Under the pieces are notes generated by a model. It worked only from the letters and a program-made list of their open reading frames with translations, did no database searches and had not been told where the DNA came from. A program made the position numbers and the translations under genes. A stretch of 64,000 nt of DNA from a virus (lineage: Duplodnaviria; Caudoviricetes), in IMG/VR virus record IMGVR_UViG_3300028048_000089, positions 51,329-115,328 of that record, one strand, 5' to 3'. Shown piece after piece: positions 8,512 through 63,284 of the stretch. Position 1 is the first letter of the stretch. Every line of letters begins with the position of its first letter.

Positions 8512-9084
8512 CTATTCAAACTTCTCTCTAAATGCTCTTGTAACACCTCTAAATGAACCTTCTTTTGCAACACTAACTGCATCATATGGTTCAACTTCAT
8601 AGACACTAAAGTTAAGAACTACTTGAGCATATCTATCATCATCTAAAATTGGTTTTTGATATTCAATAGAGACACCGCTATTGACAACACCTTTAATGAA
8701 GATGTCTTTACCAAATTTAATAGCAATCATTGGAGGAACAACACTCTTATTTGTTGCTTGATATTTAGGTAAAGCAATTGCCTGTAACTTTCTAATTAAA
8801 GACTCAACGAAATCTTCACCATCTTCAAGTCCCCATTTAGCAAAGTCAATGTTCATATCTTGCACCATATCTCTATGAAGATGTAATTGAACTTGAACTT
8901 CTCTAGGACCACTGTGACTATAAGTGAAGACAGGTGCAGTTCTACTTAATGCATTTTGAGAAGCAAAATTTGAACCCATCTTGTCCATTACTGAATCAGG
9001 CCATTCAGGTAATAATAACCACTCATCTGTGTGATATAAGTATAAAACATTTGTAATTGTTGGAGTTGTTGCATTACTAGGCAT
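8512..9084 (-). CDS. Tail tube initiator / baseplate-tube junction protein (gp48/gp54-like)
   Basis: SRTAPVFTYSHSGPREV and PPMIAIKFG motifs; position between tape measure and LysM genes. Start moved to ATG 9084, which has a GGAGG RBS. Confidence 0.6.
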   Translation of the reverse strand: MPSNATTPTITNVLYLYHTDEWLLLPEWPDSVMDKMGSNFASQNALSRTAPVFTYSHSGPREVQVQLHLHRDMVQDMNIDFAKWGLEDGEDFVESLIRKLQAIALPKYQATNKSVVPPMIAIKFGKDIFIKGVVNSGVSIEYQKPILDDDRYAQVVLNFSVYEVEPYDAVSVAKEGSFRGVTRAFREKFE

Positions 9085-10510
9085 AAATACCTCCCAAAGC
9101 ATCTAATACTCTTAATGCTTTTACTTCTCTAGAAGACTTATCTACTTTGTTATCAAGTTCATTTTTAAGTGATTGTAAGATACTTTCAACATCTTTATCC
9201 ACATAACATAATAAGTCTTTGTAAATATCTCTATACATGAAATCACCATCATGACCATGTGTTGAAATATATTTATAAATCCACTTGTTAATATCTTCTG
9301 ACCATTTACCATAGATATCAAATGTGAAGTCTTTATCATAACCAGCAATTAAGATTTGAACTCTCTTAATATTGCTAATAATTTCATCAATATGTGTAAT
9401 TACATTATCAGATAAATATTCTCTTAATCTATCAGATAATAAATATTTTTCATGTGTTTGATATGCAAGTAATTTAAGTCTTGTTAAATAATCATAGTTG
9501 CCAACGGCATTTACAACTGGAGATACCCAATTATCACCATCGCTAAACAAGACAGTAAATTGATGGTTTACTTCACTATAGTCACAACTATCAACTAAAA
9601 CGGAATCTGCTTTCTCCGTGTCAATATCATTGAAAAACCAAGTATGTGTATCACCATTCACATAAACACCACCAGGTATGTGTTCAAAGAATGCATTTCC
9701 TAAATACTCACCATCTTCAGTTACAATAACATCAGAGTTCTTTCTATAATCACCTTCTAACAATACAATGTTATCAGTATATGATGTAGGAAGAATTATA
9801 AATAATTTTAAGTTATCTTCTTGTTTAATTTGTTCTTCTTCAGTTAATTCAGGTGAATGTAACAACACAGGTTTACTAAATGTTAATCCTGCATCATAAG
9901 TAACAAATGTTTTTGCTTCAATACTATCTGAAGAAGTTGAAGGTTTATCTGTCATTTGAATATATTTATTGTGAGAATAAAACCCATAAAACATTGAAAT
10001 ACTATTTTGATATTCAAGAGACAATGTGTAATCAGTATTTGCTCTCACAGGAATCATAAAGATATGATAATCAGCATTTGTTGTAACTACATAATTACTA
10101 GTAGCATCTGCATAAATCTCAATATCAATGTTAGAAGCAGATTGATTACTAAAGCAATTATACATAGGCATTAAATTTAAACCTAAATAATCTTTAATAA
10201 ATCTTAAATATTTACCAAGATATTCATGAGTATATGAATCATAGTAATTATTTCTAATTTCAAGATGTTTAGTAAGATTTAAAACTTCATCATCATATTT
10301 ATAATCACAAACTTTTTTATAGCCAGTAACTTTATTAGTACCATCAACAGAAGTAGCAATACGAATCTCTTCAAAATCTCTATCTATATAATATTCACCA
10401 ACATAAAATTTACTATCATCTTTCTTAACTTTACATGTAGGTAAATTGAAAGAATGAAGCAATTCTTTTATATGACCAACATATATATTATTATCATTAA
10501 ATTTAATCAT
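9077..10510 (-). CDS. Hypothetical virion (baseplate-region) protein
   Basis: 477-aa ORF coupled to the tape measure and tube-initiator genes. Confidence 0.5.
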   Translation of the reverse strand: MIKFNDNNIYVGHIKELLHSFNLPTCKVKKDDSKFYVGEYYIDRDFEEIRIATSVDGTNKVTGYKKVCDYKYDDEVLNLTKHLEIRNNYYDSYTHEYLGKYLRFIKDYLGLNLMPMYNCFSNQSASNIDIEIYADATSNYVVTTNADYHIFMIPVRANTDYTLSLEYQNSISMFYGFYSHNKYIQMTDKPSTSSDSIEAKTFVTYDAGLTFSKPVLLHSPELTEEEQIKQEDNLKLFIILPTSYTDNIVLLEGDYRKNSDVIVTEDGEYLGNAFFEHIPGGVYVNGDTHTWFFNDIDTEKADSVLVDSCDYSEVNHQFTVLFSDGDNWVSPVVNAVGNYDYLTRLKLLAYQTHEKYLLSDRLREYLSDNVITHIDEIISNIKRVQILIAGYDKDFTFDIYGKWSEDINKWIYKYISTHGHDGDFMYRDIYKDLLCYVDKDVESILQSLKNELDNKVDKSSREVKALRVLDALGGIYA

Positions 10511-13640: not shown

Positions 13641-14132
13641 TTAGTCTTCCTCCACATCATTTAATTTAGCAGCATCTCTATATCTCTGTGCTAGTATTAA
13701 TCTCACCATAGCAGATATAGAAATTGATAAATATTCTGCTTCTGCCTCTAGTTGTTTTCTTAAATTGTCAGGGAGTTGAAATCCAATAATTTTTAAATCT
13801 TTTTGTTGTTTATATTCATCTGGTAATGATTGTCTATCCCCCTCACCACCTTGCTTCACATTATATCCAATTGAACTATCCCTGGCATGTAATGTTTCAA
13901 TCCAATACTTTTCTCTTGCCTTTAAAATATCATTAGTTGAACACCACTCTAAGATTTCACGCCTAAAATTAGATGTTCCAAATTCTCTTAAAGCGACCTT
14001 AATTTTTGAACCGCTTCCCCAATAATTCTCATCAACAAAAGAACCTTTTTTCTTTCCTACATAAATCTTTCCATTAACTAGATTTGTGATTTTGTAAATA
14101 TAACCAAATTTTGTATTAACAATATCATCCAT
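13641..14132 (-). CDS. Free-standing GIY-YIG endonuclease with a C-terminal ribbon-helix-helix-like domain
   Basis: GYIYKITNLVNGKIYVGK...YWGSG...REKYWI...GYN is a Seg-like GIY-YIG domain. The tail IIGFQLPDNLRKQLEAEAEYLSISISAMVRLIL has an RHH pattern. Confidence 0.85.
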   Translation of the reverse strand: MDDIVNTKFGYIYKITNLVNGKIYVGKKKGSFVDENYWGSGSKIKVALREFGTSNFRREILEWCSTNDILKAREKYWIETLHARDSSIGYNVKQGGEGDRQSLPDEYKQQKDLKIIGFQLPDNLRKQLEAEAEYLSISISAMVRLILAQRYRDAAKLNDVEED

Positions 14133-20383: not shown

Positions 20384-22567
20384 CTATTTAACTTTACTTA
20401 CAGTATAAACATTTCTGTTATGATAAGAATCTTCTGGACTTGTTTCTTCTAATTGTTTCTTTTTATCCATACATTCTTTTCTAGAACCAACCATTATTCT
20501 ATCAATTTTAATTGGTCTACCAGAATGAGTATCTAAAACTTTAACATGCAAAGAATAAACATCATCTGCACCTTCTTTTAAAGATTCATTTTTCTTTGTC
20601 TTATATGCAACTAAAGGATAATGACTCTTTTCATGTTCCTGTTTTTTATCTTTATATTCAATAAAAAGTAATCCATTAGGAACCTCATAGTTATCTTCAA
20701 CTATATCATAGTATTTAATGTTATTCTCTTTAGCATAGTCTTCTAGATATTTATATGCTTCTTCATATGTATCAAATAAATCAATCTCATCACCATCTTC
20801 AGTTTCAATTGTTTTTGATTCTTCTAATGATTCTTCTACATCATCAAAGTCATCAATAATTCCTTTAACAACAGGAAGACCAAATTTAGATTCACCAACA
20901 TTTAAACCATTTTTATTTGTGATAACATATCTATCACCAGCATCAATAATGTTGTACCCTTTATATTTACACACAAAACCTTTGCCTCTTGATTCATCTA
21001 AAGATTCAGCTTTATCTTTTTTACCTAAACCCCAAGTATCAATGCCATCATAACCCCAAATAAGTTTATCATCTTCACTTTCAATTTCACCACTTGGAGA
21101 TACATAAACTTCAACTGAAGCAAAACCATCTCTATCAACTAATTTTCTAGCAGTTTCAATTGCTTCTTCTCTTGTAGCAAAATTGTCTGTGTAAATTTCA
21201 GAGATACCTTGGTCTCTTAAATCTTCATCTTCCCAATATTTAATATAAATTTCTTCAAAAGATTCTTTAATAGTATCTTCTTTACAACAATGCTTTTTAT
21301 AATGATTTCTTGCTTCAGGTTTTAAATTTTGTTTAGAAGAATCTTCACCTAAACTAACACTAGAAGTTTCAGAAGCATCATCACTTCCCATTGTGTGATT
21401 GAAGAATTCAGCTTCTCTTGCAGGGTCACCACAAAATCTAACTTTTACTTTTTTATCTTTCTTTTCATCTAAATCATCATTAAGAATCTTATAACCAGTT
21501 TCACCATTAGAAGCAGGACCCCAAGCAACACCAAGAGGAGTTAAACCAAATTCTTCTTTTAATTCTTGGAAAAACTTAGTAAATCTTTCAATTTGTTGTT
21601 CTCTAAAGTCATCTTCTAAATCATCAAGGTAATCTTCATGTTCAATATTAATATAGGCTGCTTCATAATATCCTGGTTCAATATCTAACATAACATCTTC
21701 AAGATTGAGGTTATATCCATATTGTTGTTCACCATCAACAACATCTGCATCCCAGGCCATTCTCTTTGTTTCTTCATTAAAGTCATAGAGTTTGTCTTTT
21801 AATCTTTCTTGTTCATCTTCATCTAAGATACACACCTTTTCTTCATCCCGATACTTTTGTTCAAAGGCATCTTTAGCATCTTCAAAAGCATCCCAATCTA
21901 TTTCACCATCTTCATTTTCAAATTGTTCTTCTTGAGGATAATCTGGATTATGATGCATATTCCAATAAAATTCATCAATTGTATAGAAAACTAATAATGG
22001 GAAATGTTCTGGACCTCTACCGAAATTAGAAGTACCTTCATCAAGTTTCTTTTCTTCTTTTTCGCACTTGATATTAGTTTCAAAATATCTCCAATCACCA
22101 TTTAAATCTCTCATATACCAATAAGTGATATCATCTCTTGGGTCAATAGCACCATTTTCAAAATCTTCTTTTGAGAAATCCCAAAGGTCACCATTATCAT
22201 AAGCATCACCAAACTTACTCATGTATTCTTTAATATTATGATTGAATTCAACACAAGCACCATTCACTACATCATTTGCAGATTCAATGAGATAATCTTT
22301 ACCAACATGATTACAAATTTCATCTATGATTGCTTTATCATCAATGCCACTCATCATAGCATCAAAAATATCCCAATAACCTGTAACTTGCCACCAAGCA
22401 GAATCTGGCCACACTCTTTCAATTGCATCTTGATAGGCAATCTCAAAAGGTTTTATCTTCATCAATTCATTGTAATCATTAATGTTACCATCAAAATGTA
22501 AACATTTGGCATTTAATTTCTCTCTAGCAGCATTTAATTCATTTCTTAAATTATCTAGTTTACTCAT
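20384..22567 (-). CDS. Acidic multidomain putative internal head protein
   Basis: Repeated linkers ESFEE, ESLDES, ESLEES and ESLKEG. Start moved to ATG 22567, which has an AAGGAG RBS. Confidence 0.6.
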   Translation of the reverse strand: MSKLDNLRNELNAAREKLNAKCLHFDGNINDYNELMKIKPFEIAYQDAIERVWPDSAWWQVTGYWDIFDAMMSGIDDKAIIDEICNHVGKDYLIESANDVVNGACVEFNHNIKEYMSKFGDAYDNGDLWDFSKEDFENGAIDPRDDITYWYMRDLNGDWRYFETNIKCEKEEKKLDEGTSNFGRGPEHFPLLVFYTIDEFYWNMHHNPDYPQEEQFENEDGEIDWDAFEDAKDAFEQKYRDEEKVCILDEDEQERLKDKLYDFNEETKRMAWDADVVDGEQQYGYNLNLEDVMLDIEPGYYEAAYINIEHEDYLDDLEDDFREQQIERFTKFFQELKEEFGLTPLGVAWGPASNGETGYKILNDDLDEKKDKKVKVRFCGDPAREAEFFNHTMGSDDASETSSVSLGEDSSKQNLKPEARNHYKKHCCKEDTIKESFEEIYIKYWEDEDLRDQGISEIYTDNFATREEAIETARKLVDRDGFASVEVYVSPSGEIESEDDKLIWGYDGIDTWGLGKKDKAESLDESRGKGFVCKYKGYNIIDAGDRYVITNKNGLNVGESKFGLPVVKGIIDDFDDVEESLEESKTIETEDGDEIDLFDTYEEAYKYLEDYAKENNIKYYDIVEDNYEVPNGLLFIEYKDKKQEHEKSHYPLVAYKTKKNESLKEGADDVYSLHVKVLDTHSGRPIKIDRIMVGSRKECMDKKKQLEETSPEDSYHNRNVYTVSKVK

Positions 22568-22577
22568 TTTAATCTCC

Positions 22578-23294
22578 TTAATCAACTGGATAGAATAAAT
22601 TACTATTATTTCTTAATATTTCTCTTAAATTTTCTAATTCTCTATTACCTTCTTCAAGTAATGTATCACCATCAATTGTGTATAAAGCATTACTTTGTTT
22701 TGCATAGGTTCTAATTCTACCTAATGCTCTCTTTGTTAATGCTAATGCATGTCTTTGAAGAATATCAATCCAATAATCATTCTTAATGTCATCAACATCT
22801 TCAAACAAAGGCACATATTCAATTACAATAGTAGAAGGAACTCCACTAGAAATATTTATATACAATTTGTTCTCATGCTTGTCTTCTCTAAAAGCCAAGT
22901 CTGTAGATTGTGTATTTCTAAGTTGTAATAATGTATTATAAGTCATGTAGTTGGTTAAGTAGTTATTTAAGTTATACATTGAACCACCATTACTATATGC
23001 TAACCACACTTGAGCATACATAGGGTCAACACTACTAATACCACCATTACCAGGACCTTGGTCACCAATGGCTGCATCTCTATAGACATTAACAATTGCA
23101 CTATGTTTAAAATCAGTTAAATCAATACAAGATGCAAAAGGAACTTGAACAAGTTTAGTTTCATCTATGTATCTTTGAATCTCTCTAAGAGATTGCATAA
23201 CTAACTTACCAATCATCTCATCAGTAATTTCTAATTCAAGAAGACCACCAGTTAACTCAAGTTTAATTGCTTCAATATAATCAGTTAATTGCAT
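22578..23294 (-). CDS. Neck / head-tail adaptor protein (T4 gp13-like)
   Basis: IKLELTGGLLELEI N-terminus and WIDILQRHALALTKRALGRIR...IDGDTLLEEGNRELENL C-terminus match gp13-like proteins. Confidence 0.8.
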   Translation of the reverse strand: MQLTDYIEAIKLELTGGLLELEITDEMIGKLVMQSLREIQRYIDETKLVQVPFASCIDLTDFKHSAIVNVYRDAAIGDQGPGNGGISSVDPMYAQVWLAYSNGGSMYNLNNYLTNYMTYNTLLQLRNTQSTDLAFREDKHENKLYINISSGVPSTIVIEYVPLFEDVDDIKNDYWIDILQRHALALTKRALGRIRTYAKQSNALYTIDGDTLLEEGNRELENLREILRNNSNLFYPVD

Positions 23295-23378
23295 TTATAT
23301 CATCTCCAAAAAGAATAGTATATCTATCATTAAATTTAGCAACTATATAAAATTGTATAATTTTAAGCACTATTTACA

Positions 23379-23410
23379 ATAAAAAGCAACCAAATAAATT
23401 TAGTTGCTTT
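23379..23410 (-). terminator. Intrinsic terminator after the tRNA
   Basis: Minus strand AAAGCAACTAAAT-TT-ATTTGGTTGCTTT followed by TTAT, immediately 3' of the tRNA CCA. Confidence 0.75.
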
Positions 23411-23414
23411 AAGT

Positions 23415-23490
23415 TGGTTACAGGGGGAGGACTTGAACCTCCGACCTCCAGGTTATGAGCCTGGTAAGCTACCTCTGCTATCACCCTGCG
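23415..23490 (-). tRNA. tRNA-Met(CAT), initiator type
   Basis: CGCAGGG...CCAGG-CTCATAA-CCTGG...GGAGG-TTCAAGT-CCTCC-CCCTGTA-A-CCA; 76 nt; C1xA72 mismatch; encoded CCA. Confidence 0.95.
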
Positions 23491-23672
23491 ATATCATCTT
23501 TAATAATTAGATTAGAATTGCCACTATCTAATCTCATTTGGGTTACATAAACACATAACGAATATAGTAGCAATTCTTTTTAATGCTCTTAATAACATAG
23601 TTTCTCCAATCTAGGTTTTAACGAGTTTTTTCTTCTCAATTAGAGCAAGATTGGCTATGACATTTGTATTTC

Positions 23673-23793
23673 GGCGGGGATGGAGAGGTATTGCACCTCA
23701 CAAACATTAAGATTCTTACACAGGACTTTTAATCATTTACCATGGACATGAAACCTTGTCGCTTAAATCATTTTCTACTTAAGTTACAACCCC
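23673..23793 (-). ncRNA. tRNA-like element (~120 nt, non-canonical)
   Basis: 5' GGGGTTG pairs with 3' CATCCCC-G-CC (one mismatch); T-arm-like GAGG-TGCAATA-CCTC; long D-like stem CTTAAGT/ATTTAAG; no clean anticodon arm. Confidence 0.45.
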
Positions 23794-23815
23794 AGAAAGA
23801 CTCCGAAGAGTCTTT
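23794..23815 (-). terminator. UUCG-capped hairpin, probable terminator or 3' boundary of the large RNA
   Basis: Minus strand AAAGACTC-TTCG-GAGTCTTT-CT. Confidence 0.65.
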
Positions 23816-24892
23816 ATTCATAGATGTTACTACTGTGTATCGTTCGTTTGCACAGGGTTAGATTTCTCTAACAAGGCAGGTAACTAGTCACGCTTTACAT
23901 AGGGTTTATGATTCTCACTACCTAATACGTTTGACATTCGCTCATTCTCATCAGTGACTCGTGCAGGATTTTATAACTATTGATAATAGTTCCCTGGACC
24001 CATGTCAGCTGGAACCTGCTTTTCTAAAAGTATTTTTCACCTAATTAGATGGTTTCTGTTTCTTATGTTTCTGTTGTTACCGTCTCCTACTGCTTTGGTA
24101 GATTGCTTCAGGTCAGTAGTCAACCTTTTGTTTAGAGGTCCGCTAACTCTAAACATAGAAAGGAGGTAAGGTTTATATTAACTCTATTGCTAGAGTAATA
24201 TACAAAGTTATTGACAATTTTTACTCTCCTCAGCAGTGTCTTAACAGTTATCTGGTAAGAGTAGGATTGCTCATGAGCCTCCGGCCTAATCGCGGTAGAT
24301 ATTTAATCATGAGTGTACTTGTTCCGATACATCATCACTGAATGTAGATTGTGAACCTCTCGGCAAACATTTTATTTATGTTTAATTTGAAGGCTCAACC
24401 CTTCTTGCAGGAGTAAATTCCTGGAGTTCCCTGGCTTTAATTTCTCTATACCATTCTACGCCATCTCTGGTAGGCACCAGCACATCTCCCTCATCTAAGG
24501 AAGATACAGGAAACGAACCCGTTATTTTTTCATAGATGGTTAATTACCTATTGCTAATGGTTATAAGCCAAACATTAGTGTAGTGACTGAAACTATACTA
24601 CTTTGTTCTAGATTTTACTCTAGTTACGGAGTTTAACCGCTTTTCTAATGCCAATAGGCTGAGGTAGTCCACTGACTTGCTTAATGCAAACAACATTCAG
24701 TACTGGGTGGTGGAACTATTTTTTTTAGTTAAGAATATTCACTTGTGTACTCTCCGCAACTTACGGGCTCTGTCTATTCTGCAGAAGACATTCCACGATT
24801 AGGAGTTTATGACGGTGTAGTAGATTGCGACTCTGTATCTTATATACCTCATATTTCAAAGGACTCAAAGACCCCGTCCATTCTTTCTTAAC
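23816..24892 (-). ncRNA. Large (~1.1 kb) structured non-coding RNA candidate (GOLLD-like or new class)
   Basis: No ORF in the track; visibly GC-richer than its flanks; own TATAAT promoter at 24899-24928; minus-strand GNRA hairpins (CTCTA-GCAA-TAGAG, GTTAGA-GAAA-TCTAAC); ends at a UUCG hairpin; next to a tRNA. Confidence 0.6.
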
Positions 24893-24898
24893 TATTAT

Positions 24899-24928
24899 AT
24901 TATACAAGATTTCTCTTGATAATACCAA
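24899..24928 (-). promoter_or_regulatory. Sigma70/SigA-type promoter for the ~1.1-kb RNA
   Basis: TTGGTA-N18-TATAAT on the minus strand. Confidence 0.55.
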
Positions 24929-24944
24929 CTTTTTTTATACATCT

Positions 24945-25510
24945 TATCATTCAATGAGTTCATGACTCTCACTGTTTTACTTACCATTTGATGTAAAGGA
25001 ATTTAACCTAAGCCTTAAAATAAGTTTGCTCATACTGATAGGATATCGGTGTCCTATTGTCATCAATTTTATAATCACACAAGTTTCCCACCATCTAAGA
25101 CAGTGACAAAGGATATTGTGTAATTAACATCATAAGGCACATCAATTAAGACATGCCCTTGAAAGTCCCAACATTAGTTGGCAATAGGTCCTTTATTATC
25201 CTATGTTTTAATCCATCGCATTAGTTTATCACTAGTCACAAGCAATAGATGAGGTATCCAAGATTTTTTCGTAATGTGCTTTACTTTCTCCACTTGGTTG
25301 GAAGATGTGAGAGACACCTTTTCAGTTCTTTGTCTTGAACAGATATTGCAGTAACATTATCTCACATTATGTAACCACTCAAGATTCCTATCCCTTTAAC
25401 GAATCTTCCTGGGGCATGTCTTCTCAATTAAGTTAGGTCTTCATGCTTGTCTAACAGCAGTTTTTTCTATAAACGAGATGTCGCCCGTTTTGCAAGAATG
25501 TTAACTTGCA
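24945..25510 (-). ncRNA. ROOL-like large structured RNA (~560 nt)
   Basis: ORF-free. Perfect 11-bp long-range helix between 25148-25158 and 25412-25422. Size and tRNA-adjacent phage context fit ROOL. The minus-strand TTAATTGAGAAGACATG...AAGATTCG...GGAATCTTGAGT...TGTGAGATAA resembles ROOL as I recall it (not verified by search). Confidence 0.6.
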
Positions 25511-25516
25511 CATATT

Positions 25517-25544
25517 ATTATACAATCTTTTTTCAAAATTGCAA
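25517..25544 (-). promoter_or_regulatory. Sigma70/SigA-type promoter for the ROOL-like RNA
   Basis: TTGCAA-N16-TATAAT on the minus strand. Confidence 0.55.
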
Positions 25545-25620
25545 TAATATTTTTAAAGAAAAGTATATAAAAACAATACCTCTCTTTTCATTTAATTTAG
25601 CACTTTGATTTTTAGGTATT

Positions 25621-25650
25621 AAAAAAGATGCATTATTTCAATGCATCTTT
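25621..25650 (-). terminator. Intrinsic terminator
   Basis: Minus strand AAAGATGCATT-GAAAT-AATGCATCTTT followed by TTT, just after the stop at 25664. Confidence 0.8.
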
Positions 25651-25663
25651 ATCTTCTTGTAAA

Positions 25664-26788
25664 CTACTTTTCAACTCTTGCTTTAAGTTCAATTGGTTTT
25701 CTTGCTTTAATATGACCTGTATTATGATTGTCTTCTTTCATATCTTTGACTGCACCAACAAGTTTTCTTTCTGGTGTATCTTTACCAAAATGTTTATCAA
25801 GAATGTCATCATCTGTATTCTTAATTACTTTTTTAAATAAAACATCCTCGTCATCATCTAGGTCATTCCAATCAACAGTGCCTAATTTAACATCATCTTC
25901 TGATTCATCTATAATATGATTGAAACCAAAGTCATCATCAAAATCAGTACTTTCAGAAATAGATTCACCAAAATCATCATCAATATCATCTAAAGCAATA
26001 TCATCAATGAATTCAGTATTTGAGACTTCAATCTTATCATCATCATTTTCTTTTGGTTCTTCTTTATCTTCATGCTTATAGATAGCATTTGGGTCTTTCT
26101 TAAGAACTTCTAAGAAATCTTTATGAGCAACTTCCTCTTCTTTAATATGATTTAATTGTTCAATAGCATTAGCATCTGCTTCTTTATCTAACATAGCAAT
26201 AATCTTGTCATAACCAGCAATTGCTTCATCTTCATCTTTAACTAAGAAATCAATTTTTTCTTCAAATGTTTCTAATTTTGGTTCTTTAGCATCTTCTTTA
26301 GGTTCTTCAACTTCTACTTCTGCTTCAACATCAATATCTTCAGCATCTTCTTTTAATGATTCATCAACAACTTCAAAATACTTATCAAAATCCTTTAGTA
26401 AGAAATCAGGGCCAATACTACCCCAAGTACCTAAATTTGTTTCAATCTTCCTATTGCCTCTAGTATCAACTTGTTTAGCATCATAGATACAACCTTTAGA
26501 CCATAATTCACCTTCTTCATCATCTTCCATGTAATCCTTAATGCATTTAACCTTGATTGTTGCTTTATCTTCTTTTAAAGATTCTTTAACTGCAACTAAA
26601 TCTTTGGTAGAGTCAATAATATCTTCTTTATTGAAAGAAATACCAGCATCACCTTTTAACCAAATAGCATCTTCATCATACTTTTTATTTAATTCTCTAA
26701 ATTGAGATAAAAGATGTTTATATTCATCATAATTGTCTTCTTCAATACCTAAGATATCAAAAATTTCCTTATCAGTTAAATTTTTCAT
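25664..26788 (-). CDS. Acidic multidomain putative internal head protein
   Basis: Two ESLKED linkers; DEDEAIAGY...HIKEEEVAH segment has a ferritin-like helix-pair pattern. Confidence 0.6.
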   Translation of the reverse strand: MKNLTDKEIFDILGIEEDNYDEYKHLLSQFRELNKKYDEDAIWLKGDAGISFNKEDIIDSTKDLVAVKESLKEDKATIKVKCIKDYMEDDEEGELWSKGCIYDAKQVDTRGNRKIETNLGTWGSIGPDFLLKDFDKYFEVVDESLKEDAEDIDVEAEVEVEEPKEDAKEPKLETFEEKIDFLVKDEDEAIAGYDKIIAMLDKEADANAIEQLNHIKEEEVAHKDFLEVLKKDPNAIYKHEDKEEPKENDDDKIEVSNTEFIDDIALDDIDDDFGESISESTDFDDDFGFNHIIDESEDDVKLGTVDWNDLDDDEDVLFKKVIKNTDDDILDKHFGKDTPERKLVGAVKDMKEDNHNTGHIKARKPIELKARVEK

Positions 26789-28308
26789 TAGTCTTCATCC
26801 TCCACATCATTGAGCATTTCATCATCTGCATCTTTATGAGCATCAGCTATACTAGCACAGATAGAGAAAATGTCATTACATAAACTTTCAAAAGCAACTT
26901 CCCAATTTGCATCTTGAGGAGTACAATATTCTTCTAAGACTTTCCATTGGTCATATGTATAAATTAATTCATCATCAATTGCTTGATAAATATCTTCATC
27001 ATCAGAGAAGTTATCAACTCTTCCAATAATAGAAGCAACAACATCTAAGAATTCAAAACTAGAACTATAATCAAAATATTCAGCAATAACATCTTTATAA
27101 GGAGATGTACTATATTCTTTATCTTCTTTAATCACTTCTTTTTCTTCTTTTAAAGATTCATCTGCTTCTTTTACTTTCTTTTTTCTTCCAACTTTTACAA
27201 TTAATTTATGATTATCATCTAATTCAAATTCATCAATAACTTCATCATCATTGAGAGGGTCTGTAAATCCTAGTTCATAACCTTTTTTATCATATAAGAC
27301 ATATTGACAATAACCACCATCATCTTCGTCAAATGCATCAAAATAAACATAACAACCATCTTCATAAGTTCCAATTTGTTCTGACATAGTTTCACCAGAT
27401 TCTGCATCATTTATTTCGTTGCATCTTTCAACAAAGTTAGAACCTACTTCATAAGTTAAAGTTAAAGAGGTTGATTCTTTCTTTTCTTCTTTTAATTTCT
27501 TTGGTAATTCAATATTAACTGATAAGAAAATAGGGAGTGATGAATCAACTAAGTCTTGTGCAGAATCAAAATGTTTAAATGCTTTTTTGAAATCATCCTT
27601 TTCTTCTTTTGTATCTTCTAAATAACCCCAAGAAATTTGATTATCAATTATATCATTAATATTTGTTAAATCAACACTACCATCTTTATTAAATTTAAAA
27701 TCATAGTCAACATCAAAAGTTCTAACTTTTAAATTATTTTTTGATGTTTCAACATTATAATCATCTTCAAGAGCATCTTTAATAGCATTGATAATTGCAC
27801 TCATAGAATCAGCATCTTCTTCAACTTCAATGTTATCAATTTCTTCTTGACTCATACCTTCATCAGGCAATTTTTCAGGGTCATAAGGATTACCTTTGTT
27901 TTCAGCATCACCAAAACCAATGACTTCACCATTAGGTTTAATTTCTAAATCTTTAACACTATTGAAATCATCTAATAACCAACCAGCAAGTTTTTCATAG
28001 TCTTCATTTGGAGTAATACCTGTAGTTTCACAAATGATGTCACCTGTTTTACTATCCCATGGCATAAACCAACCATCTGGTGTATCATCTTTATTAATTA
28101 ACATGATACCAGCACATAATGCCCAATCTGGATTATCAGTGGCTTGAATAGCATCATCTCTGATTTCATCTCCCCAACCTTCTTCCCAAAGAACTACGGC
28201 ACCAAGACCATTGCCTAAGTCATACCAACCACCAACATAGTCTTGATTATTTTTAAGGAATTCAACTTCCTCTTTTAACCATTTTGCAAGTTCTTTAATA
28301 TCATTCAT
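26788..28308 (-). CDS. Acidic multidomain putative internal head protein
   Basis: KLKEEKKES and KVKEADESLKEEKEVIKED linkers; late-promoter motif upstream. Confidence 0.6.
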   Translation of the reverse strand: MNDIKELAKWLKEEVEFLKNNQDYVGGWYDLGNGLGAVVLWEEGWGDEIRDDAIQATDNPDWALCAGIMLINKDDTPDGWFMPWDSKTGDIICETTGITPNEDYEKLAGWLLDDFNSVKDLEIKPNGEVIGFGDAENKGNPYDPEKLPDEGMSQEEIDNIEVEEDADSMSAIINAIKDALEDDYNVETSKNNLKVRTFDVDYDFKFNKDGSVDLTNINDIIDNQISWGYLEDTKEEKDDFKKAFKHFDSAQDLVDSSLPIFLSVNIELPKKLKEEKKESTSLTLTYEVGSNFVERCNEINDAESGETMSEQIGTYEDGCYVYFDAFDEDDGGYCQYVLYDKKGYELGFTDPLNDDEVIDEFELDDNHKLIVKVGRKKKVKEADESLKEEKEVIKEDKEYSTSPYKDVIAEYFDYSSSFEFLDVVASIIGRVDNFSDDEDIYQAIDDELIYTYDQWKVLEEYCTPQDANWEVAFESLCNDIFSICASIADAHKDADDEMLNDVEDED

Positions 28309-28366
28309 ATTAAATTTCTCCTATATATAGTAAAATTATATACTTTATCATTTAATTTAGCAAGAA

Positions 28367-31300
28367 TTACTTCTTATTAATAATAAAATCTTTTTTATAA
28401 ATAGTTTCTTTATAGTTACCGTTATCATCAAAAGAACCAATGGCATCTTGGCCATGCTCTAAAGCAAACTTCTCTGCTTCTGGTCTATCTTTAAATAATT
28501 TATTTAATCCACAACTTGCTTGTGCATCTCCATCTGTACTACTCCAAGTACCTATTGAGTCAGCAATTGCTGATTCTTCACTACTTTGTAGTTCATTTAA
28601 TGCCTTTATAAATTCATCTTTATTTATTTCACTAATTCTTTTATTCCAATCTTTACTCTTAAATTCAACACTATAGGCGCTCTTTAATACATCTTTTCCA
28701 GATAAATCTTCACCTGTATTTTTATCAAAAGTTCCACCGTTGTTTGAAAGAGTTGCATTATAAATCTTTTCACACACTTCTTTACTAAAGTCTTCTTCTA
28801 AGTGTTCTAGAGAAAGTTCTTTACTAACACATTGTTTTCTTAAATCTTTTAAGTTATCTAAGTAACCTAAATTTCTAAATTCTTTAAAGACTAAATTACC
28901 AAGACCATATTCACCATCGCTTGCAATAGAGGATTTTCTTAAATCATAAATATCTTCAATAAAGTCTTCAATACTTTCAGCAGTTGGTTCACCATTAATT
29001 AAATTAAAGTATTTATCTTCCCATTCCATGAAGAGTTTATCAAATGCACTCTCATCTAAATCAGGAATATCTTTTTGTTCAGGTTTCTTTAACCAACCAT
29101 TATTTAAGGAATAAATGCCATTACTTTTTGCTTGTGGTTCATCCATTTCAACATAGATTTCACTTGGAATACCTTTGATTTTAATATCATAATTCTTATT
29201 AAACATACTTCTATAAGCACTATATAATAAAGGATATAAATCATCTGGGCATTCTAAACCACTTGAATCTGCAATTAAGTGAATATCTAAATCACTATCT
29301 TTTGTATAGTTATAAGAAACATTACTACCTAATAAAACAATATCTTTAAGAGTAAATCTAATACCATCTTCATTTAGTTCTCTAATAAATTGATAAGCAA
29401 TTTGTTCAATCTTATCTTTAATTTCAGGTTTTAATTCTTCACCATCAAAGAGTTTAGGATTTAATTCATCATGTTTTTCAATATCTTCATCAATAAGAGA
29501 TTTATCTAAATCAACAAAGAAATTATCGCCATCCCAACCATAATTAATTACTTCATAATCTTTGTCATTATAATTAATTATATATGTTAAAATTGGTTTA
29601 CTTTCATCTTTTCTAACATTATAGTTAGCATTTGTAAGGATTTCAAAGACATCTTTACCACTTGGTTTATCAATTAGAATATTGTGTTTTTCAATACCTT
29701 CTTTAATTTCATTTGTTTTAGTATATCTTTCTGGTGAACCAAATTTTTTAATTAAATACTCTTCGGGACATCCAAATATCGCTCTAAGTGGTCCAGTCCA
29801 TTGGGGTGCTAGAGGGTCAGACCTTGGGCACTCTCTACGATAAGGACAATCTTTACAACTAAATGCAACATGTTTTTCAATATCTTCTTCTATAGACTCT
29901 TGTTTTTTATTCTCACCCCAACCTAAAATAGTAATGTTTGTAGCAGGTTTGTTTGTCTTTCTATTAGATACTAAATCATCTTGACCAAGAACAATATCAA
30001 ACCAATATTGAGGTGCTTGAGATAAATCAGGTTCATATAGAGCATCAGTTGTACTATATGGGTCATTTGTATAAACACTATATCTATACTTGTCTCCTAA
30101 ATCATATTCTTGTTTTCTTAATGAAGAAACATCTCTAGGTTTTGCCCAGCCATTATTTTTAAGTATTTCAGTTGCTTGTTTAATTGATAATGGAGTAAAA
30201 ATACAATTTTGATTACCTAAGTCAAAATGTATTTCTTTTGCTCTTAAATCTGAAGGAAGAATCTTCAACAATTCTTTATTTGCAGTTGCATCATTAATAC
30301 CAGACACACCAATAATACCTTCTTCTAAGTCATCACCAGGATTAAAATCAATTTCAACTTTCTTTAATTGACCATCTTCTTGCTCATCCCATTTAACTTT
30401 TTCAACATTAGAAAGATTAATGCCCATTTCATTAGGAATAACATCTAAAGGTAAAGGACATTCTTCTGCATCTTTTTCAATATTCTCATTATCTCTAACT
30501 TGAATCTCTTTAACTTCTTCTTTTAATTCTTTGCCATATTTTTTAACATATGCTCTCGCATCTTCAATAGAATCAAAATCAGAAGTTGAATTAGCCCAAC
30601 CTCTATTCATCCATCTATTTGTTGCAGGATTAAAATCTTGGGTTCTAAAATAAACTTGATAAATAACTTTATCTTTACCTTTTCTAGCAACACCATTTAC
30701 TGTCTTGAAATTATGTTGAATTGTCTTAACAATTTTATATTCATTTGTTTCTTCAACAACTTCATCATTTGTATCTTCTTCTAAAGATTCATTTTTATTT
30801 TGTTTGCCTAATTTAAAATCATATTCAAATAATAAATCTAAAACAACAGGATTAGATGTTAATCTACTTTGTTTTTGATTAAATACTAAACCTTCACTAT
30901 AATCATCAATTGTTTGACCAGTATTCTTGTCATAAGACCACTCTAAGAATTCTTTTGGCATATCTTTAACAATATCTTCTTTTGTAGAAATATCTGCAAT
31001 CCAAGAACTCCAAGATTTATTTGCTTGATAATTAATTTCAACATCTGTACCATCTCTTTTATTTAAAGCATCAACTTTTTCTTGAGTTGACTTCATTAAA
31101 GAATCACCTGCAACAACAGTAATATTTGTAATTGCTCTTCTCAACCAAGCAAGTAATTCTTCAATATCACCTTTATAAGATTTCTCTATAACACCAGAAT
31201 ACTTTCTTAAAGTTTTCATACTTGCATCTTTTAACAATCTTTTGTATTCATCATAGTATGCAAGTTCAAATTCTGTTAAAGCAATACCTTCTTTTATTTG

Positions 31301-49802: not shown

Positions 49803-50471
49803 TTAATTTACCCCCTTAACTAACCCTGCTTTAACCATATCTCTATATTTACATTTACATTTAATAAGTTTATGTTTGTTATCATAGAGTTGAATATCTC
49901 TTGGAACTAAAACTAAGCCTTCCATTTCATGTTTACCACCATTAAGGGTTGACATGTGATGCTCAGCAACATAAGCTTTTGCTTCATCAAGAGTACCTTC
50001 AAAACAAACGGGTACAGACGGTAAACCAAGTTTATTAGCAACATCATCTACATTTGCTCTATTTAAGTCAAAGCCTGCAATATTAACATCAAAGACGATG
50101 AAACTAACATCAGTTCCATTTTCTACATAATCACCACCAGACTTTTGAATTCCAGCACCAAAACCTTCACCAAAGATATAAACTTCCGATTCTCCAAAGA
50201 TTTGTTCAAAGACATATTCCATTTCTGGAGTCATAAATAAATCTTTTAAATATTTATCAAGTTTTGGAGGTATTTGTGCTTTGTCAGTATGCCCAGCAAT
50301 TTCAATATCATGTCCATCCCAGTGAACTCTAATATTAGTACCATCTATTTTTTCAGTACCTTGCCAGATAATATTCTTCAATGTTTCATAAGGTTCATTT
50401 AAGCCGACAACAGTTCTAAACTTTTCATCAAACTTAAATATATTACCAATCTTTTGATATTCTTTTTCCAT
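49803..50471 (-). CDS. ATP-dependent RNA ligase (Rnl2-like)
   Basis: Motif I EKIDGTN, III FGEGFG, IIIa FDV, IV EGLVL, V KCK. Confidence 0.88.
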   Translation of the reverse strand: MEKEYQKIGNIFKFDEKFRTVVGLNEPYETLKNIIWQGTEKIDGTNIRVHWDGHDIEIAGHTDKAQIPPKLDKYLKDLFMTPEMEYVFEQIFGESEVYIFGEGFGAGIQKSGGDYVENGTDVSFIVFDVNIAGFDLNRANVDDVANKLGLPSVPVCFEGTLDEAKAYVAEHHMSTLNGGKHEMEGLVLVPRDIQLYDNKHKLIKCKCKYRDMVKAGLVKGVN

Positions 50472-50473
50472 AA

Positions 50474-50878
50474 TTATCTCCTCACAATATTAAGTAATTC
50501 TTTAGCACTAATCTTACATTCAAGAGTAACATCAATTCCTGCATCAACACAATCAATCGCTTGTTGTGAAATTGGAATTAACTTAAGCATTTCTAAGATG
50601 CCTTGTCTTCTACCATCTTCTTCTCGCCAAGATAATAATTTTTCATATTTATCACATTCGGCATTCCAAGCTTTTTGTGCTTCTCTTTCTGCTTTTTCAT
50701 TACTATCAATATAAACTGTACAACGACTGGCTGAAAGCACTTTACACTTAGGACATTCATAAATATAATCAGTGCAACCATAATAGTGTTGATAGTTGCT
50801 ACCACTCATATCTTCAACTCTTCTATTTGGCATAGAGCCACAGATTGGACATCTCTTTAAGGTAATTTCTTTTTTCAT
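50474..50878 (-). CDS. Lar-like (restriction alleviation) Zn-ribbon protein
   Basis: LKRCPICG...CPKC...EAQKAWN signature. Confidence 0.65.
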   Translation of the reverse strand: MKKEITLKRCPICGSMPNRRVEDMSGSNYQHYYGCTDYIYECPKCKVLSASRCTVYIDSNEKAEREAQKAWNAECDKYEKLLSWREEDGRRQGILEMLKLIPISQQAIDCVDAGIDVTLECKISAKELLNIVRR

Positions 50879-51208: not shown

Positions 51209-51462
51209 TTTATTAGTCCTTTCAATAGATTTTTATTATATAAATCATTACAATCATAAACTTTGTTATTTTCTAACCAACCAGAAGATTTAAGTTTTTC
51301 TACCTCACTATCTCCAAGCCAATGTCTAACAATTAGATTATTATCAGCTGTAACATAACTAACATAGTTATCATTACTTGATTTACCGATAGCAACTAAT
51401 TTTAATTTATTATGTCTTCTAAAATTTGCCCAATCAGGACCTTGCAATCTTTTAATTATCAT
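51205..51462 (-). CDS. Hypothetical protein
   Basis: 85-aa coupled ORF. Confidence 0.5.
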   Translation of the reverse strand: MIIKRLQGPDWANFRRHNKLKLVAIGKSSNDNYVSYVTADNNLIVRHWLGDSEVEKLKSSGWLENNKVYDCNDLYNKNLLKGLIK

Positions 51463-52009
51463 TTAAAATACCTACAGCTTTCTTTGCTAATTTCATATTT
51501 AACGCATCTTTATAAAAGTCAGTTCTAATCTGTTCTTTGATGTAATATGGTTTAATGTCAGCAATATCATCATCAAGAATAACAAAACTTTCTACATCAT
51601 GAGTACTAATCCATTCAGCAATTTCAGCACCTCTATCACAAGTGTATTTAATTCCTTTTTGATTAATACTTACATTATAACAATCTTCTTCTTTAAAACC
51701 TAATTGATTCAATCTCTTTATAGATACACCACTACAAGTTTTATCATAGATTTTAAACCCATAAGGCTCAAAGTGTTGATTTAACTTATCAATTCTTTCA
51801 GGACTAAATCTCCATGTAGAAGATAATACAATCTTAGCATCAGTATTTTTAACAATATATGATAAAGCATTTAAAGTATCTTCATATGGCATATCCCAAT
51901 CAAACCACTCTTGTTCAGTAATTAAACCATTTTTGTGTAGGTTATTTAATTGAACTGCTCTATTCTCGGAGTTCATCACACCATCAATATCTAAAAATAT
52001 CACTTTCAT
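51452..52009 (-). CDS. HAD-family phosphatase (Swiss-army-knife RNA repair-like)
   Basis: IFLDIDGV, IVLSSTWR, RGAEI and FVILDD motifs. Confidence 0.85.
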   Translation of the reverse strand: MKVIFLDIDGVMNSENRAVQLNNLHKNGLITEQEWFDWDMPYEDTLNALSYIVKNTDAKIVLSSTWRFSPERIDKLNQHFEPYGFKIYDKTCSGVSIKRLNQLGFKEEDCYNVSINQKGIKYTCDRGAEIAEWISTHDVESFVILDDDIADIKPYYIKEQIRTDFYKDALNMKLAKKAVGILNDN

Positions 52010-57320: not shown

Positions 57321-58460
57321 TTAAATGTTTGTTTTCTTTAATTTATTGGAAATCTTTCTTTTTGTTTCTTCAGTAATATGCTTACCCCTCATACCATCAC
57401 CAAATCTCTTTCTTGTTTCCTCAGTAATTAATCTACCTAGAACATACCCTTCTGGACATTCATAGGCTCTGGTATTTTTAATTCCGTTATTGTACCAATT
57501 TAATTTTCCTAAAGGTAACTTTCCATTCTTCCACCCTTCTTTTAAATAATCATTTAACTCTTCCTTTTTGATGTGTTTATTTACTTTACCATCATTTATC
57601 ACAATAGTTCCACCAGTTGTGTTGTAATCTTCAGGTTTTCTACCTGCATGAACTTTAGTTATCCACTCATCTTTAGTTATATTAGTAAGAATCATACCTG
57701 GTTGGTATCCTTCTGGAGGGACTTTGTCTTTCGGAATAAATTTATTTTCAACTCCATTGTTGTACCACTTACAATTAGAACTTCTTTTTCTAATTTTTTC
57801 CACTCTTTCTTTAGATAGTTTTTTACCTTTAAGAGAAATTTTATTTGCCTCACCAATCTTTTTTCTAGTTTCTTCAGAAACTTCATGATGTGTTCCTCTT
57901 AATTTAGAAGCAATTTTTTCTTTAGTCTCCTCGTTCATCTGATAGATTCTACCTAGTTGCCAACCTGCTTCTAGATATATATCTAATTTATCCTTATCTA
58001 TAATAGTGGTTACTACACCATTATTTATATGTATTCTACCTGTATATAATTTGCTTCTTAATTTAAGTGCTTCCTCTACTAACTCATTATAAGTTTCTAT
58101 TCCAGGCAATGCAGTATAATCTTTCCAATAATTCGTTGAATCTTGATTAGTGAAATCTCTATGCATTTTTATAAGTGAATTTAAACATAAACTTTTAAAC
58201 CAATCCACAGATGCACATTTATTTAAATAATAGTGTGCTAATAAATGGTCACTATGTGTAAGATTGACAATATTTTCTTTGCTATTATCAATAGGTAGTG
58301 AGCAGTGTTTATAATAACTTCTGGGAATGATGTGATGAGACTGAGTTTTAAATTTCTCCTTTTTTGTTTCTCTATTGTTTTCAATTATTTCACAATACTT
58401 GTCCAAATATTCATTATCTTCAACAATACCTAGTATTAATAGTTTTTCCTTGAGGGTCAT
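57321..58460 (-). CDS. Free-standing HNH homing endonuclease with NUMOD-type DNA-binding repeats
   Basis: HHIIPRS...NSKENIVNLTHSDHLLAH; repeated EETK/RxKI and WYNNG motifs; own late promoter. Confidence 0.88.
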   Translation of the reverse strand: MTLKEKLLILGIVEDNEYLDKYCEIIENNRETKKEKFKTQSHHIIPRSYYKHCSLPIDNSKENIVNLTHSDHLLAHYYLNKCASVDWFKSLCLNSLIKMHRDFTNQDSTNYWKDYTALPGIETYNELVEEALKLRSKLYTGRIHINNGVVTTIIDKDKLDIYLEAGWQLGRIYQMNEETKEKIASKLRGTHHEVSEETRKKIGEANKISLKGKKLSKERVEKIRKRSSNCKWYNNGVENKFIPKDKVPPEGYQPGMILTNITKDEWITKVHAGRKPEDYNTTGGTIVINDGKVNKHIKKEELNDYLKEGWKNGKLPLGKLNWYNNGIKNTRAYECPEGYVLGRLITEETRKRFGDGMRGKHITEETKRKISNKLKKTNI

Positions 58461-62226: not shown

Positions 62227-63284
62227 ACCATAAGTTTCCTCCCCTTAACAAAACCTTCTGGGCATTTTTCACAATAAATTGCTATTTTACCATTATTGTA
62301 CCAATGATAGTTCTTAGGTAAATTTGATTTCATCTTAGATTTAATTCTACCCTTAATAAAGCCTTCAGGAACCATTTCATTAGGATGTAATCTTATTTCT
62401 CTTATTCCATTATTATAAATTATTCTACCCCTATTCTTTTCTTCAACAATTTTATGAGATTTTTTTAAATGTTGAAGATGAATATCAGACTTCTTTTTAC
62501 CTTTTAATGCTTTTGATACTTTTTCACCGAAGTTAGCTGGTTTCTTTTTACCAGTTAATATGCTTGAAATTTTTCTTTTAAATTCATCATTTCTAATTTT
62601 ACCTTTATTGCCTATTGATATCTGTTTTCGCGTTTCTTCTGATACTTCTTTATGGTATCTACCATTTTTTTCACCTTTATGTAATTCAGACCACTTTTCT
62701 GTATCATTTAATGAATTACCGCCTTGACCACCTTTATGTATATTATAACCAAATGCTTTATCTTGTGCTTTGTAAAGTTTTATATACAACTTCTCAAGTT
62801 CATTGAGTTCTTCTCTTGAATAGCCAAAACAAATTATTTCTCTTGTAATTACACCTTTTCCATATTTTTTTAGGTCTTCTTTCCATAATTTACCACTACC
62901 ATAGTAATGTATATCAAACTCAGACTTCTCTCGCTTCCCTATATAAACTCTATTTGTCTTAGTATTTACAAATTTATATATGTAACCAAATGGTTTTATA
63001 TTTTCATCAAATAGTTCATCATCTTCAGTTAAATCTTTAGCCATTTTATATGTACCATTCTTAAGCATGAATCTATGTGTTGGGGTACATTTAATAATAG
63101 AGCCGTCTTCAAGTTCAATTTGATATTCTTCATTTGTTTTTAAAGTTGGCTTTACTGTACAATGCTCACTAATGACCTCTTCACCTTGTTCATCAATGGA
63201 TATAACTTGAATATCTTTATCTACTAATGTATCCAATCTCTTAAGACCTTCTGTTGTTTTAATCATTGTCTCACCATCAAGACA
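62101..63284 (-). mobile_element. Split intein in terL: IntN fused to a GIY-YIG endonuclease (63284-62223) plus a separate 42-aa IntC (62226-62101)
   Basis: Block A CLDGETMI, block B IKCTPTHRF, GIY-YIG GYIYKF...VYIGK, then a stop. An overlapping ATGA restart encodes blocks F/G (YYDV...NF...SHN-C). Confidence 0.88.

Follow-up and report, generated by a model that had tools for sequence, protein, structure and literature searches.

Which RNA, if any, is made from the largest stretch without open reading frames (ORFs) in the genome of a cattle rumen phage, and does it belong to a known family? The stretch lies in IMGVR_UViG_3300028048_000089, a linear virus record of 115,328 base pairs (bp) that is approximately 70% complete. 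Bases 51329-115328 of this record were analysed (64,000 nucleotides (nt), referred to as the window; all positions are those of the window unless stated otherwise). An earlier note, made from the letters of positions 24945-25602, had proposed that a ROOL-like RNA is expressed here from both a host-type and a late phage promoter, and had hinted at a role in virion assembly or RNA packaging. Covariation and RNA contigs agree with the note in that a real, structured and expressed non-coding RNA is present. However, this RNA probably represents an uncatalogued family of structured phage non-coding RNA that is abundant, modular and neither ROOL nor GOLLD.

The ORF-free stretch and its transcription

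The gap between ORFs extends over 2,369 nt (23295-25663, minus strand), and the segment taken up in the earlier note makes up only its first quarter; the description of the unit as free of ORFs held up, while its size of about 560 nt did not. The gap is the largest in the 115-kilobase (kb) record, the runner-up measuring 781 nt. With translation table 11, no ORF of more than 55 amino acids (aa) lies wholly within 23295-25663. Coding under another genetic code was ruled out, as reading TAG as glutamine or TGA as tryptophan opened no frame on the gene (minus) strand of the gap; longer frames under these codes, of 80 and 100 aa, occur only on the opposite strand. The GC content of the gap is 0.35 as compared to 0.29 for the record, with 200-nt windows reaching 0.37-0.40 as compared to 0.24-0.33 in the flanks. 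On the minus strand, the RNA locus runs from about 25585 to about 23500 and comprises about four modules, here termed units A to D, with a transfer RNA (tRNA) gene for methionine at its end (Table 1). Repeat distances of 599-618 nt correspond to a unit spacing of about 600 nt.

Sequence words from the gap were found in 20 listed public sequencing runs from 11 studies of the bovine or sheep gut, eight of which (8/20) are RNA runs, and four runs were compared over positions 20500-28500 by contig depth. In RNA run X4, a contig of 1,873 nt (23569-25438) has a depth of 170 and a contig of 166 nt (25410-25574) a depth of 51, as compared to 3.2 for the single 244-nt contig from the flank. In RNA run X2, which stems from another study, positions 23830-24492 reach a depth of 376 and positions 24687-25463 a depth of 192, while the flanks are represented by six contigs at depths of 5-7.6, which stem from the same strain (0 differences). 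Beyond the 166-nt contig, cover is almost nil (0.38 in X4 and 3.45 in X2 for the bin 25573-25839). The DNA run X6 is flat, with depths of 7.6-10.2 inside the gap and 6.7-10.4 in the flanks (one 222-nt contig, 2.6), and the sheep RNA run X19 contains pieces of the gap at approximately 90% identity. Of the runs with a small share of gap words, X19 is the only one considered, and its flanks did not enter the comparison. The RNA excess of the gap over its flanks amounts to 25- to 75-fold in two rumen metatranscriptome studies, which is hard to explain by DNA carry-over.

An additional observation concerns position 23830, where an Illumina adapter is fused exactly to the RNA contig of X2. The same base terminates a contig of X19, a run that belongs to a different study, and the X4 contig reads through it. 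This position, 16 nt before the UUCG-loop hairpin at 23814-23795, may mark a discrete RNA end or a processing site.

Conserved structure

Homologs of the array were identified in six further distinct phage-type contigs, namely L028 (identical to L029), L032, L033, L040, L041 and L042. Six unit A cores were aligned, yielding a structure of five helices, including a pseudoknot, with 25 pairs (Table 1). In this structure, 99.3% of the alignment cells are paired and 10 of the 25 pairs are changed on both sides. None of 500 shuffled controls reached the percentage of paired cells, the number of pairs changed on both sides, the number of cells changed on both sides or the covariation score; one of the 500 reached the count of further pair types, and slid controls gave 0-1 compensatory pairs. 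RNAalifold, which is incapable of predicting pseudoknots, recovered helices H1, H2 and H3 when run blind. On the opposite strand, the G-U pairs of H1 and H3 would turn into A-C mismatches, and the RNA is therefore the minus strand. Model R1 gives the window core 145 bits and the five other training sequences 127-157 bits; L028, which is outside the training set, scores 37 bits (E 2.7e-6).

The core measures about 115-145 nt. Among its elements are an invariant unpaired AUACCUCA after the second hairpin and an invariant stretch, GGAUAAUAnAGGACC (25201-25187), which spans the loop and the 3' strand of H4; such unpaired motifs are invariant across six to seven sequences. The insert enclosed by H3 ranges from a short hairpin in L040 up to about 130 nt in L032 and L042, and inserts are swapped between relatives. 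Helices of units B and C covary as well. In a unit B hairpin, variants from the sheep run change TGG/CCA to CAG/CTG, and the same double change is present in L028. Unit B further contains an invariant GUAC-centred palindrome, which reads CAGUACUG in three of six sequences. In L042, blocks 2-3 (unit B) precede block 1 (unit A), and units A and B are therefore separable modules.

Exchange is also seen at the level of a single insert module (AAGACUAAAC, continuing into a stem on CGGGCCC/GGACCCG), which is located in H3 of unit A in L041 (2930-2997) and in a unit B helix in L042 (2194-2261 of the reversed locus) and L028 (approximately 2510-2529). Judging from these sequences, RNA domains are exchanged between different host helices. 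Some unit A inserts carry hairpins that resemble a tRNA T-arm almost perfectly, CTTGG-TTCGATT-CCAAG in L042 and AATGG-TTCAAAT-CCATT in L032; ARAGORN calls no tRNA in them.

The predicted fold of the single sequence is only modestly more stable than those of shuffles on either strand (z -2.16 for the minus and -2.06 for the plus strand). The perfect 11-bp helix emphasized in the earlier note does exist, but is not exceptional: when the 591-nt unit was shuffled with its dinucleotides kept, 10 of 100 sequences contained a perfect stem of at least 11 bp, and the helix is kept in no homolog. Its 5' arm overlaps a local hairpin, GCATG/CATGC, which covaries with its counterpart in L042 (ATATG/CATAT). 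A long closing helix of unit B (24701-24687 with 24351-24337) was rejected, as it was not seen in homologs.

Relationship to ROOL, GOLLD and other known families

All 4,227 families of Rfam 15 were compared with the window by cmscan, and only tRNA reached its gathering score (that of ROOL, RF03087, is 99.1 bits). On positions 23000-26000, no match to ROOL, GOLLD (which we take to be RF01998), OLE, a group I or II intron, a riboswitch or a ribozyme was found at E<=10. A search of the whole record with RF03087 gave no match either; the ROOL model was also silent in the control genomes (0/14), and the cmscan runs themselves were able to detect tRNAs and a riboswitch aptamer. ROOL and GOLLD had no match in L028, L032 and L033 at E<=1, nor in L040, L041 and L042 at E<=0.1. 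The best match other than tRNA, HPnc0260, was rejected (38.5 bits as compared to a gathering score of 59, antisense over the tRNA).

These searches speak against the membership in ROOL proposed earlier. The context in which ROOL occurs is indeed present, as the record is that of a phage and tRNA-Met lies in the same gap. Such a context (rumen, phage, tRNA, about 600 nt) is, however, common to unrelated RNA families, so that context alone is unfit for assigning membership. Comparative support for the fold is limited to one pseudoknot and four helices in the 145-nt core, the rest of unit A being without homologs.

Promoters and the phage motif

The nonamer TGCTAAATT at 25594-25602 is one of 15 copies in the window, all on the minus strand, as compared to 2.27 expected; none of 100 shuffles reached 15. 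The extended consensus of the motif is TGCTAAATTWAATGA, which the copy at 25602-25588 fits fully. Fourteen of the 15 copies are located 19-71 nt upstream of a protein start, and the copy at the array is the sole exception. This confirms a feature pointed out in the earlier note, and the terminator further upstream, the TTGCAA/TATAAT promoter and the two 5' hairpins described there were likewise found (Table 1). The motif was also called late. This is plausible but unproven, because it occurs seven more times in the remaining 51 kb of the record.

In all five arrays that begin after a gene, namely those of the window, L028, L032 (with the variant TGCTAAAAT), L033 and L041, the motif is followed 30-70 nt later by a TATAAT box. 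TATATT is found upstream of unit C, and units A, B and C are each preceded by a -10-like box. The RNA contig covering 25410-25574 at a depth of 51 reaches 52 nt upstream of TATAAT and stops 20 nt after the phage motif, which fits use of this motif, contigs being unable to map transcript starts. Positions 25584-25574, which would be part of a leader made from the phage-motif promoter only, are perfectly complementary (11/11) to positions 23693-23683, the part of unit D, 1.9 kb further down, that contains UACCUC (RNAduplex z -3.0). This complementarity may mean nothing, because we estimate that approximately 0.7 such matches are expected by chance per 2.4 kb.

Distribution among phage genomes

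Among 12 metagenome loci linked to the head-tail adaptor gene, four (L028, L029, L032 and L033, corresponding to three distinct sequences) carry the array, each with an ORF-free stretch of 1.75-1.9 kb or more that shows patchy similarity to the gap of the window. In these loci, as in the window, the array is located between cargo-type genes and the adaptor gene. L030 and L031, whose adaptors are 80% and 77% identical, have protein genes instead of the array at this position. The complete genomes G001 (180.8 kb) and G002 (217.6 kb), related through an adaptor of 52% identity, also have protein genes before the adaptor gene; neither a gap nor a tRNA precedes it there, and the RNA core is absent from both genomes. 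In L035 (642-1374) and L038 (252-1492), with adaptors of approximately 60% identity, the adaptor gene is preceded by a different AT-rich, ORF-poor stretch (GC 0.26-0.27); these two stretches are 72-75% alike and unrelated to the array.

A degenerate pattern of the core identified L040 (a 13-kb viral contig), L041 (a 161-kb viral contig) and L042, a 41.7-kb contig of a metagenome-assembled genome (MAG) labelled "Bacilli bacterium." A looser pattern returned only the same two viral contigs, and two exact words of the array, 21 and 23 nt long, had no match when viral, metagenome and genome contigs were searched. Within the order of the carrier MAG, the core was found in one of 106 genomes, which is the MAG itself. 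In L040, the core precedes a topoisomerase II gene. The L041 array has phosphoesterase- and primase-like genes as neighbours and is located 1.7 kb downstream of nine clustered tRNA genes (16-867; Ile, Thr, Leu, Asn, Asp, Cys, Val, His and Ser). Similarity to cultured phages was rejected: blastn of the gap against 50,697 phage records matched only tRNA-Met genes (27 records, at most 4% query cover each).

Organization of the locus and its genomic setting

All long ORFs of the record are on the minus strand. Gene names assigned through PHROGs and Pfam in the window include portal, prohead protease, major head protein, sheath, tube and baseplate hub, together with a 2,608-aa polyvalent protein with an ADP-ribosyltransferase domain. 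The RNA locus is situated between the head-tail adaptor gene and a 374-aa gene, for which no relatives were found in viral contigs. An RNA ligase gene and a gene with a HAD domain of the type found in "Swiss Army Knife" RNA-repair proteins (Table 1) point to a putative RNA-repair module in this phage; a weak, Lar-like match at 50474-50878 is under the Pfam cut-off. Three genes of homing-endonuclease type are interspersed among the structural genes (13641-14132, 57321-58460 and 62223-63911), two of them GIY-YIG-like (phrog_314) and one HNH-like, and two of the three have their own copy of TGCTAAATT. A second tRNA-Met (CAT) gene is located outside the window (record 9015-9091) and adjoins an ORF-free stretch of 528 nt (8819-9346).

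Table 1. Features of the RNA locus and selected neighbouring genes, by position in the window.
Feature	Position	Strand	Remarks
374-aa gene, no assigned function, upstream of the RNA gap	25664-26788	-	
Intrinsic terminator (11-bp stem, T-run) of the upstream 374-aa gene	25624-25650	-	
Phage promoter-like motif TGCTAAATTAAATGA	25588-25602	-	Only window copy (1/15) without a protein gene behind it
Sigma-70-type promoter TTGCAA-16-TATAAT, heads unit A	25517-25544	-	10/12 matches
5' hairpin TGCAAG/CTTGCA	25509-25491	-	
5' hairpin AAACGGG/CTCGTTT	25490-25471	-	Inside a 37-nt block 100% identical in L028
Local hairpin GCATG...CATGC	25413-25447	-	Competes with the 11-bp helix; two pairs covary with L042
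11-bp complement AAGACATGCCC	25422-25412 with 25158-25148	-	Present; not conserved, not beyond chance
Unit A conserved core	25173-25316	-	Covariation, model R1 (145 bits), RNAalifold
H1	25303-25299 with 25292-25288	-	
Pseudoknot, H1 loop CCAAG with CUUGG	25297-25293 with 25262-25258	-	
H2	25284-25281 with 25274-25271	-	
Unpaired invariant ACCUCA	25255-25250	-	
H3, long-range helix enclosing the insert	25250-25242 with 25219-25211	-	
H4	25202-25200 with 25188-25186	-	
Unit A 3' part	24930-25172	-	Lineage-specific (no blastn homolog); covered by RNA contigs
Second sigma-70-type promoter TTGGTA-18-TATAAT, heads unit B	24899-24928	-	
Unit B core (blocks 2a, 2b, 3a, 3b)	24382-24726	-	Second conserved folded module; precedes unit A in L042
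Unit C (blocks 4, 5)	23822-24204	-	GCAA-loop hairpin 24195-24182 and ACCTCCTTTCTA 24167-24156
UUCG-loop hairpin (23814-23795) and unit D	23500-23814	-	UACCUC at ~23689; covered by the 1,873-nt RNA contig (X4)
tRNA-Met (CAT), 3' end of the RNA locus	23415-23490	-	
Strong intrinsic terminator (12-bp) closing the RNA locus	23383-23410	-	
Next TGCTAAATT copy after the closing terminator	23333-23341	-	Followed by the adaptor gene (23294-22578)
Head-tail adaptor gene	22578-23294	-	PHROGs/Pfam
RNA ligase	49803-50471	-	PF09414, E 9.7e-15; phrog_548
HAD domain of "Swiss Army Knife" RNA-repair proteins (HAD_SAK_2)	51452-52009	-	PF18143, E 2.2e-23

Possible functions of the array

In the proposed model, the RNA is made from the phage-specific promoter motif and from host-type TATAAT promoters and accumulates far above the neighbouring messages. 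By exposing its conserved unpaired motifs in large numbers, it would serve in trans as a multivalent decoy or sponge; no particular mechanism is put forward with more than low confidence. The favoured target, tentatively proposed by analogy with OLE RNA and bS21, is the translation-initiation machinery, which might be engaged through mimicry of the 3' tail of 16S ribosomal RNA with its anti-Shine-Dalgarno (anti-SD) sequence. UACCUC is present in all four modules, ACCTC occurs five times as compared to 0.9 expected (P=0.003), and ACCUCA is invariant and unpaired in the cores of both unit A and unit B. In unit C, all 12 nt of positions 24167-24156 agree with the 3' tail of the 16S sequence of G014 (L046:1509-1498, minus strand), a genome from the order to which the only MAG carrying the RNA belongs. 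This segment follows the unit C hairpin CTCTA-GCAA-TAGAG after 14 nt, an arrangement that L028 keeps with one change, and the layout of hairpin and tail recalls helix 45 plus the anti-SD tail. Comparison with shuffles by RNAduplex gave no conserved internal partner of ACCUC; pairing stood out in two isolated cases only, between unit D and the leader (z -3.0) and at one site in L041 (z -2.45). Other CCUCC sites are present in L032 and L041.

Several points weigh against this reading and against the identification on which it builds. Contig depth is one figure per contig and gives neither starts, ends nor strand, nor proof of a single transcript, and RNA libraries can contain DNA. The structure was derived by eye, with the very six sequences on which it was then assessed; a single divergent one among them, L040, contributes nine of the 10 compensatory pairs, and the 3' 250 nt of unit A are without a homolog. 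Units A and B share no significant overall sequence similarity (local alignment z 1.29), and model R1 detects the core only once in the window, with no match in unit B, C or D. For these reasons, the notion of four paralogous modules rests on shared short motifs, and a tandem duplication of units A and B is not shown by sequence. The likeness to the 16S tail was noticed post hoc, units A and B contain only ACCUCA, and the order of G014 is no more than a presumed one for the host of the phage. A bS21 gene was found neither in the record, at its approximately 70% completeness, nor among the 31 window ORFs scanned. Finally, the core of L040 is located at the 5' end of a messenger RNA leader, directly before a riboswitch-like aptamer, an arrangement that agrees equally well with action in cis, or binding of a ligand, and with action in trans.

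This last arrangement leads to a different explanation, in which the modules are ligand-binding aptamers. The array would then soak up a small molecule, or sense it in the manner of a set of riboswitches; a nucleotide second messenger of host signalling or immunity would be one candidate. The minimal core of L040 (2615-2742) starts a transcript, with TTGTAA-17-TATATT just upstream, and abuts an aptamer of the c-di-GMP-I-GGC type (RF03167; 2741-2816, E 3.3e-11), which is followed by a terminator that includes the SD sequence of a 431-aa gene with no assigned function. The core itself is aptamer-like in its pseudoknot and its many invariant unpaired nucleotides. However, the adjacency occurs in one of seven loci and the hit is just under the gathering score (56.5 bits as compared to 59), no riboswitch family matches the array of the window at E<=10, and most copies have neither a gene nor an expression platform behind them. 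A riboswitch leader is seen in L040 only; in the window, the array is separated from the next gene by a tRNA, a terminator and a further promoter. A small-ligand sponge is therefore considered unlikely. The same degree of doubt applies to the idea that units of about 600 nt behave like ROOL or GOLLD without belonging to them and self-assemble, in the course of infection, into a multimeric shell or scaffold made of RNA only. The unit spacing, the ornate, swappable inserts and the palindrome of unit B, which could form a kissing contact, would agree with such an assembly. A phage-borne locus, a rumen source and a tRNA neighbour are context traits also reported for ROOL and GOLLD (PMC5737381), and ROOL, GOLLD and OLE form homo-oligomers (PMC12286853). 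The absence of a covariance-model match argues against it, as do the size of the minimal member L040, which has only about 115-130 nt, and the presence of a tRNA within 2 kb in only three of the seven loci.

The remaining explanations appear less probable still. The modules might serve as decoys or sacrificial substrates for host defences that target RNA, such as anticodon or ribosomal RNA nucleases, alongside the phage tRNAs and RNA-repair enzymes. The T-arm-like hairpins in L042 and L032, the tRNA-Met of the locus, the nine-tRNA cluster upstream of the L041 array and the phage genes for the RNA ligase (PF09414) and HAD protein (PF18143) are in line with this scenario. It is nevertheless quite improbable, since neither ARAGORN nor the Rfam tRNA model finds a tRNA-like gene inside the modules and the inserts bearing T-arms are their least conserved parts; T-loops are common tertiary motifs in many RNAs. 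Decaying or selfish DNA, i.e., a transcribed remnant of an intron or mobile element with no phage function, could account for the patchy presence among close relatives, the variable genome position and the mosaic module content, and the window does hold three homing-endonuclease genes. Compensatory changes that keep helices, invariant unpaired motifs in six to seven sequences, conserved promoters and the very high RNA abundance, together with the lack of a match to group I or group II intron models, make this very unlikely. Least credible is the proposal of the earlier note, a divergent but true ROOL or an RNA packaged in the virion with cargo proteins. Size, rumen origin and tRNA neighbour would fit, as would the position between cargo-type genes and the adaptor gene in the window, L028, L032 and L033. 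The ROOL model, however, is silent in the window at E<=10 and in the six homologs, and the conserved core consists of one pseudoknot and four helices. Moreover, the array stands in other neighbourhoods in L040 and L041 and is absent at this position from L030 and L031 and from the complete relatives G001 and G002, and a role in virion assembly deduced from its location among head-cargo genes is therefore unsupported.

Significance

In the open literature (bioRxiv supplements and non-open journals being outside its scope), ROOL, GOLLD, OLE and the T4 RNAs RNAC and RNAD are described, and no description of the present RNA was found. To our knowledge, few large structured RNAs have been described from bacteria and phages (ROOL, GOLLD, OLE and raiA among them), with functions that are largely open. 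Each new class of large RNA has led to new biochemistry or structural biology. Taken in its full form, the proposal is a speculative one: rumen T4-type phages would possess a new class of ornate modular RNA, an array of about 2 kb of diverged pseudoknotted modules that is among their most abundant transcripts and that acts as a multivalent sponge, either by mimicking the 16S tail and so capturing translation-initiation components (bS21, SD sequences or factors acting on that tail), or by soaking up a small signalling molecule, as the fusion to a c-di-GMP-I-type aptamer in L040 would suggest. If true, this would be an RNA-based device for take-over or counter-defence, for which no described phage precedent was found. 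The locus offers several handles, including a compact core of 115-145 nt supported by covariation, natural length variants and a high abundance in situ in the rumen, as well as two testable leads, the mimic of the 16S tail and the riboswitch fusion.

Comparison with known systems

RNAC and RNAD of phage T4 lie in the tRNA gene region. Similar to the RNA described here, which is putatively late, they are non-coding RNAs of a T4-type phage, of unknown function and classed as late (PMC9697503). Unlike the present array, they are small single genes. Tandem riboswitch or aptamer leaders (RF03167) are approached by L040, in which the core, a GEMM-I-type aptamer and a platform of terminator and SD sequence are united in one leader. 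In contrast, the modules of the window and of the five other loci have no expression platform or gene behind them and match no riboswitch model.

OLE is a large structured RNA of Bacillota with a sequence identical to the 16S 3' tail, an anti-SD mimic that is bound by bS21 (PMC12054373). The comparable feature here would be ACCUCCUUUCUA in unit C, which matches the 16S sequence from the relevant order in 12 of 12 positions, together with one UACCUC per module. The OLE mimic, located in P6, is paired with an SD-like strand (PMC12054373), whereas ACCUC has no conserved partner in the present RNA; neither a match to the OLE model nor a bS21 gene was found here.

ROOL (RF03087) and GOLLD share the most general traits with the locus, being large, ornate non-coding RNAs of rumen and gut that are encoded by phages or prophages, often in the vicinity of tRNA genes (PMC5737381). 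The mean length of ROOL, 581 nt, is close to the unit spacing of about 600 nt. Unlike ROOL and GOLLD, whose covariance models yield no match, the RNA described here is built from a pseudoknotted core of 115-145 nt with swappable inserts and from diverged modules arranged in a 2-kb array.

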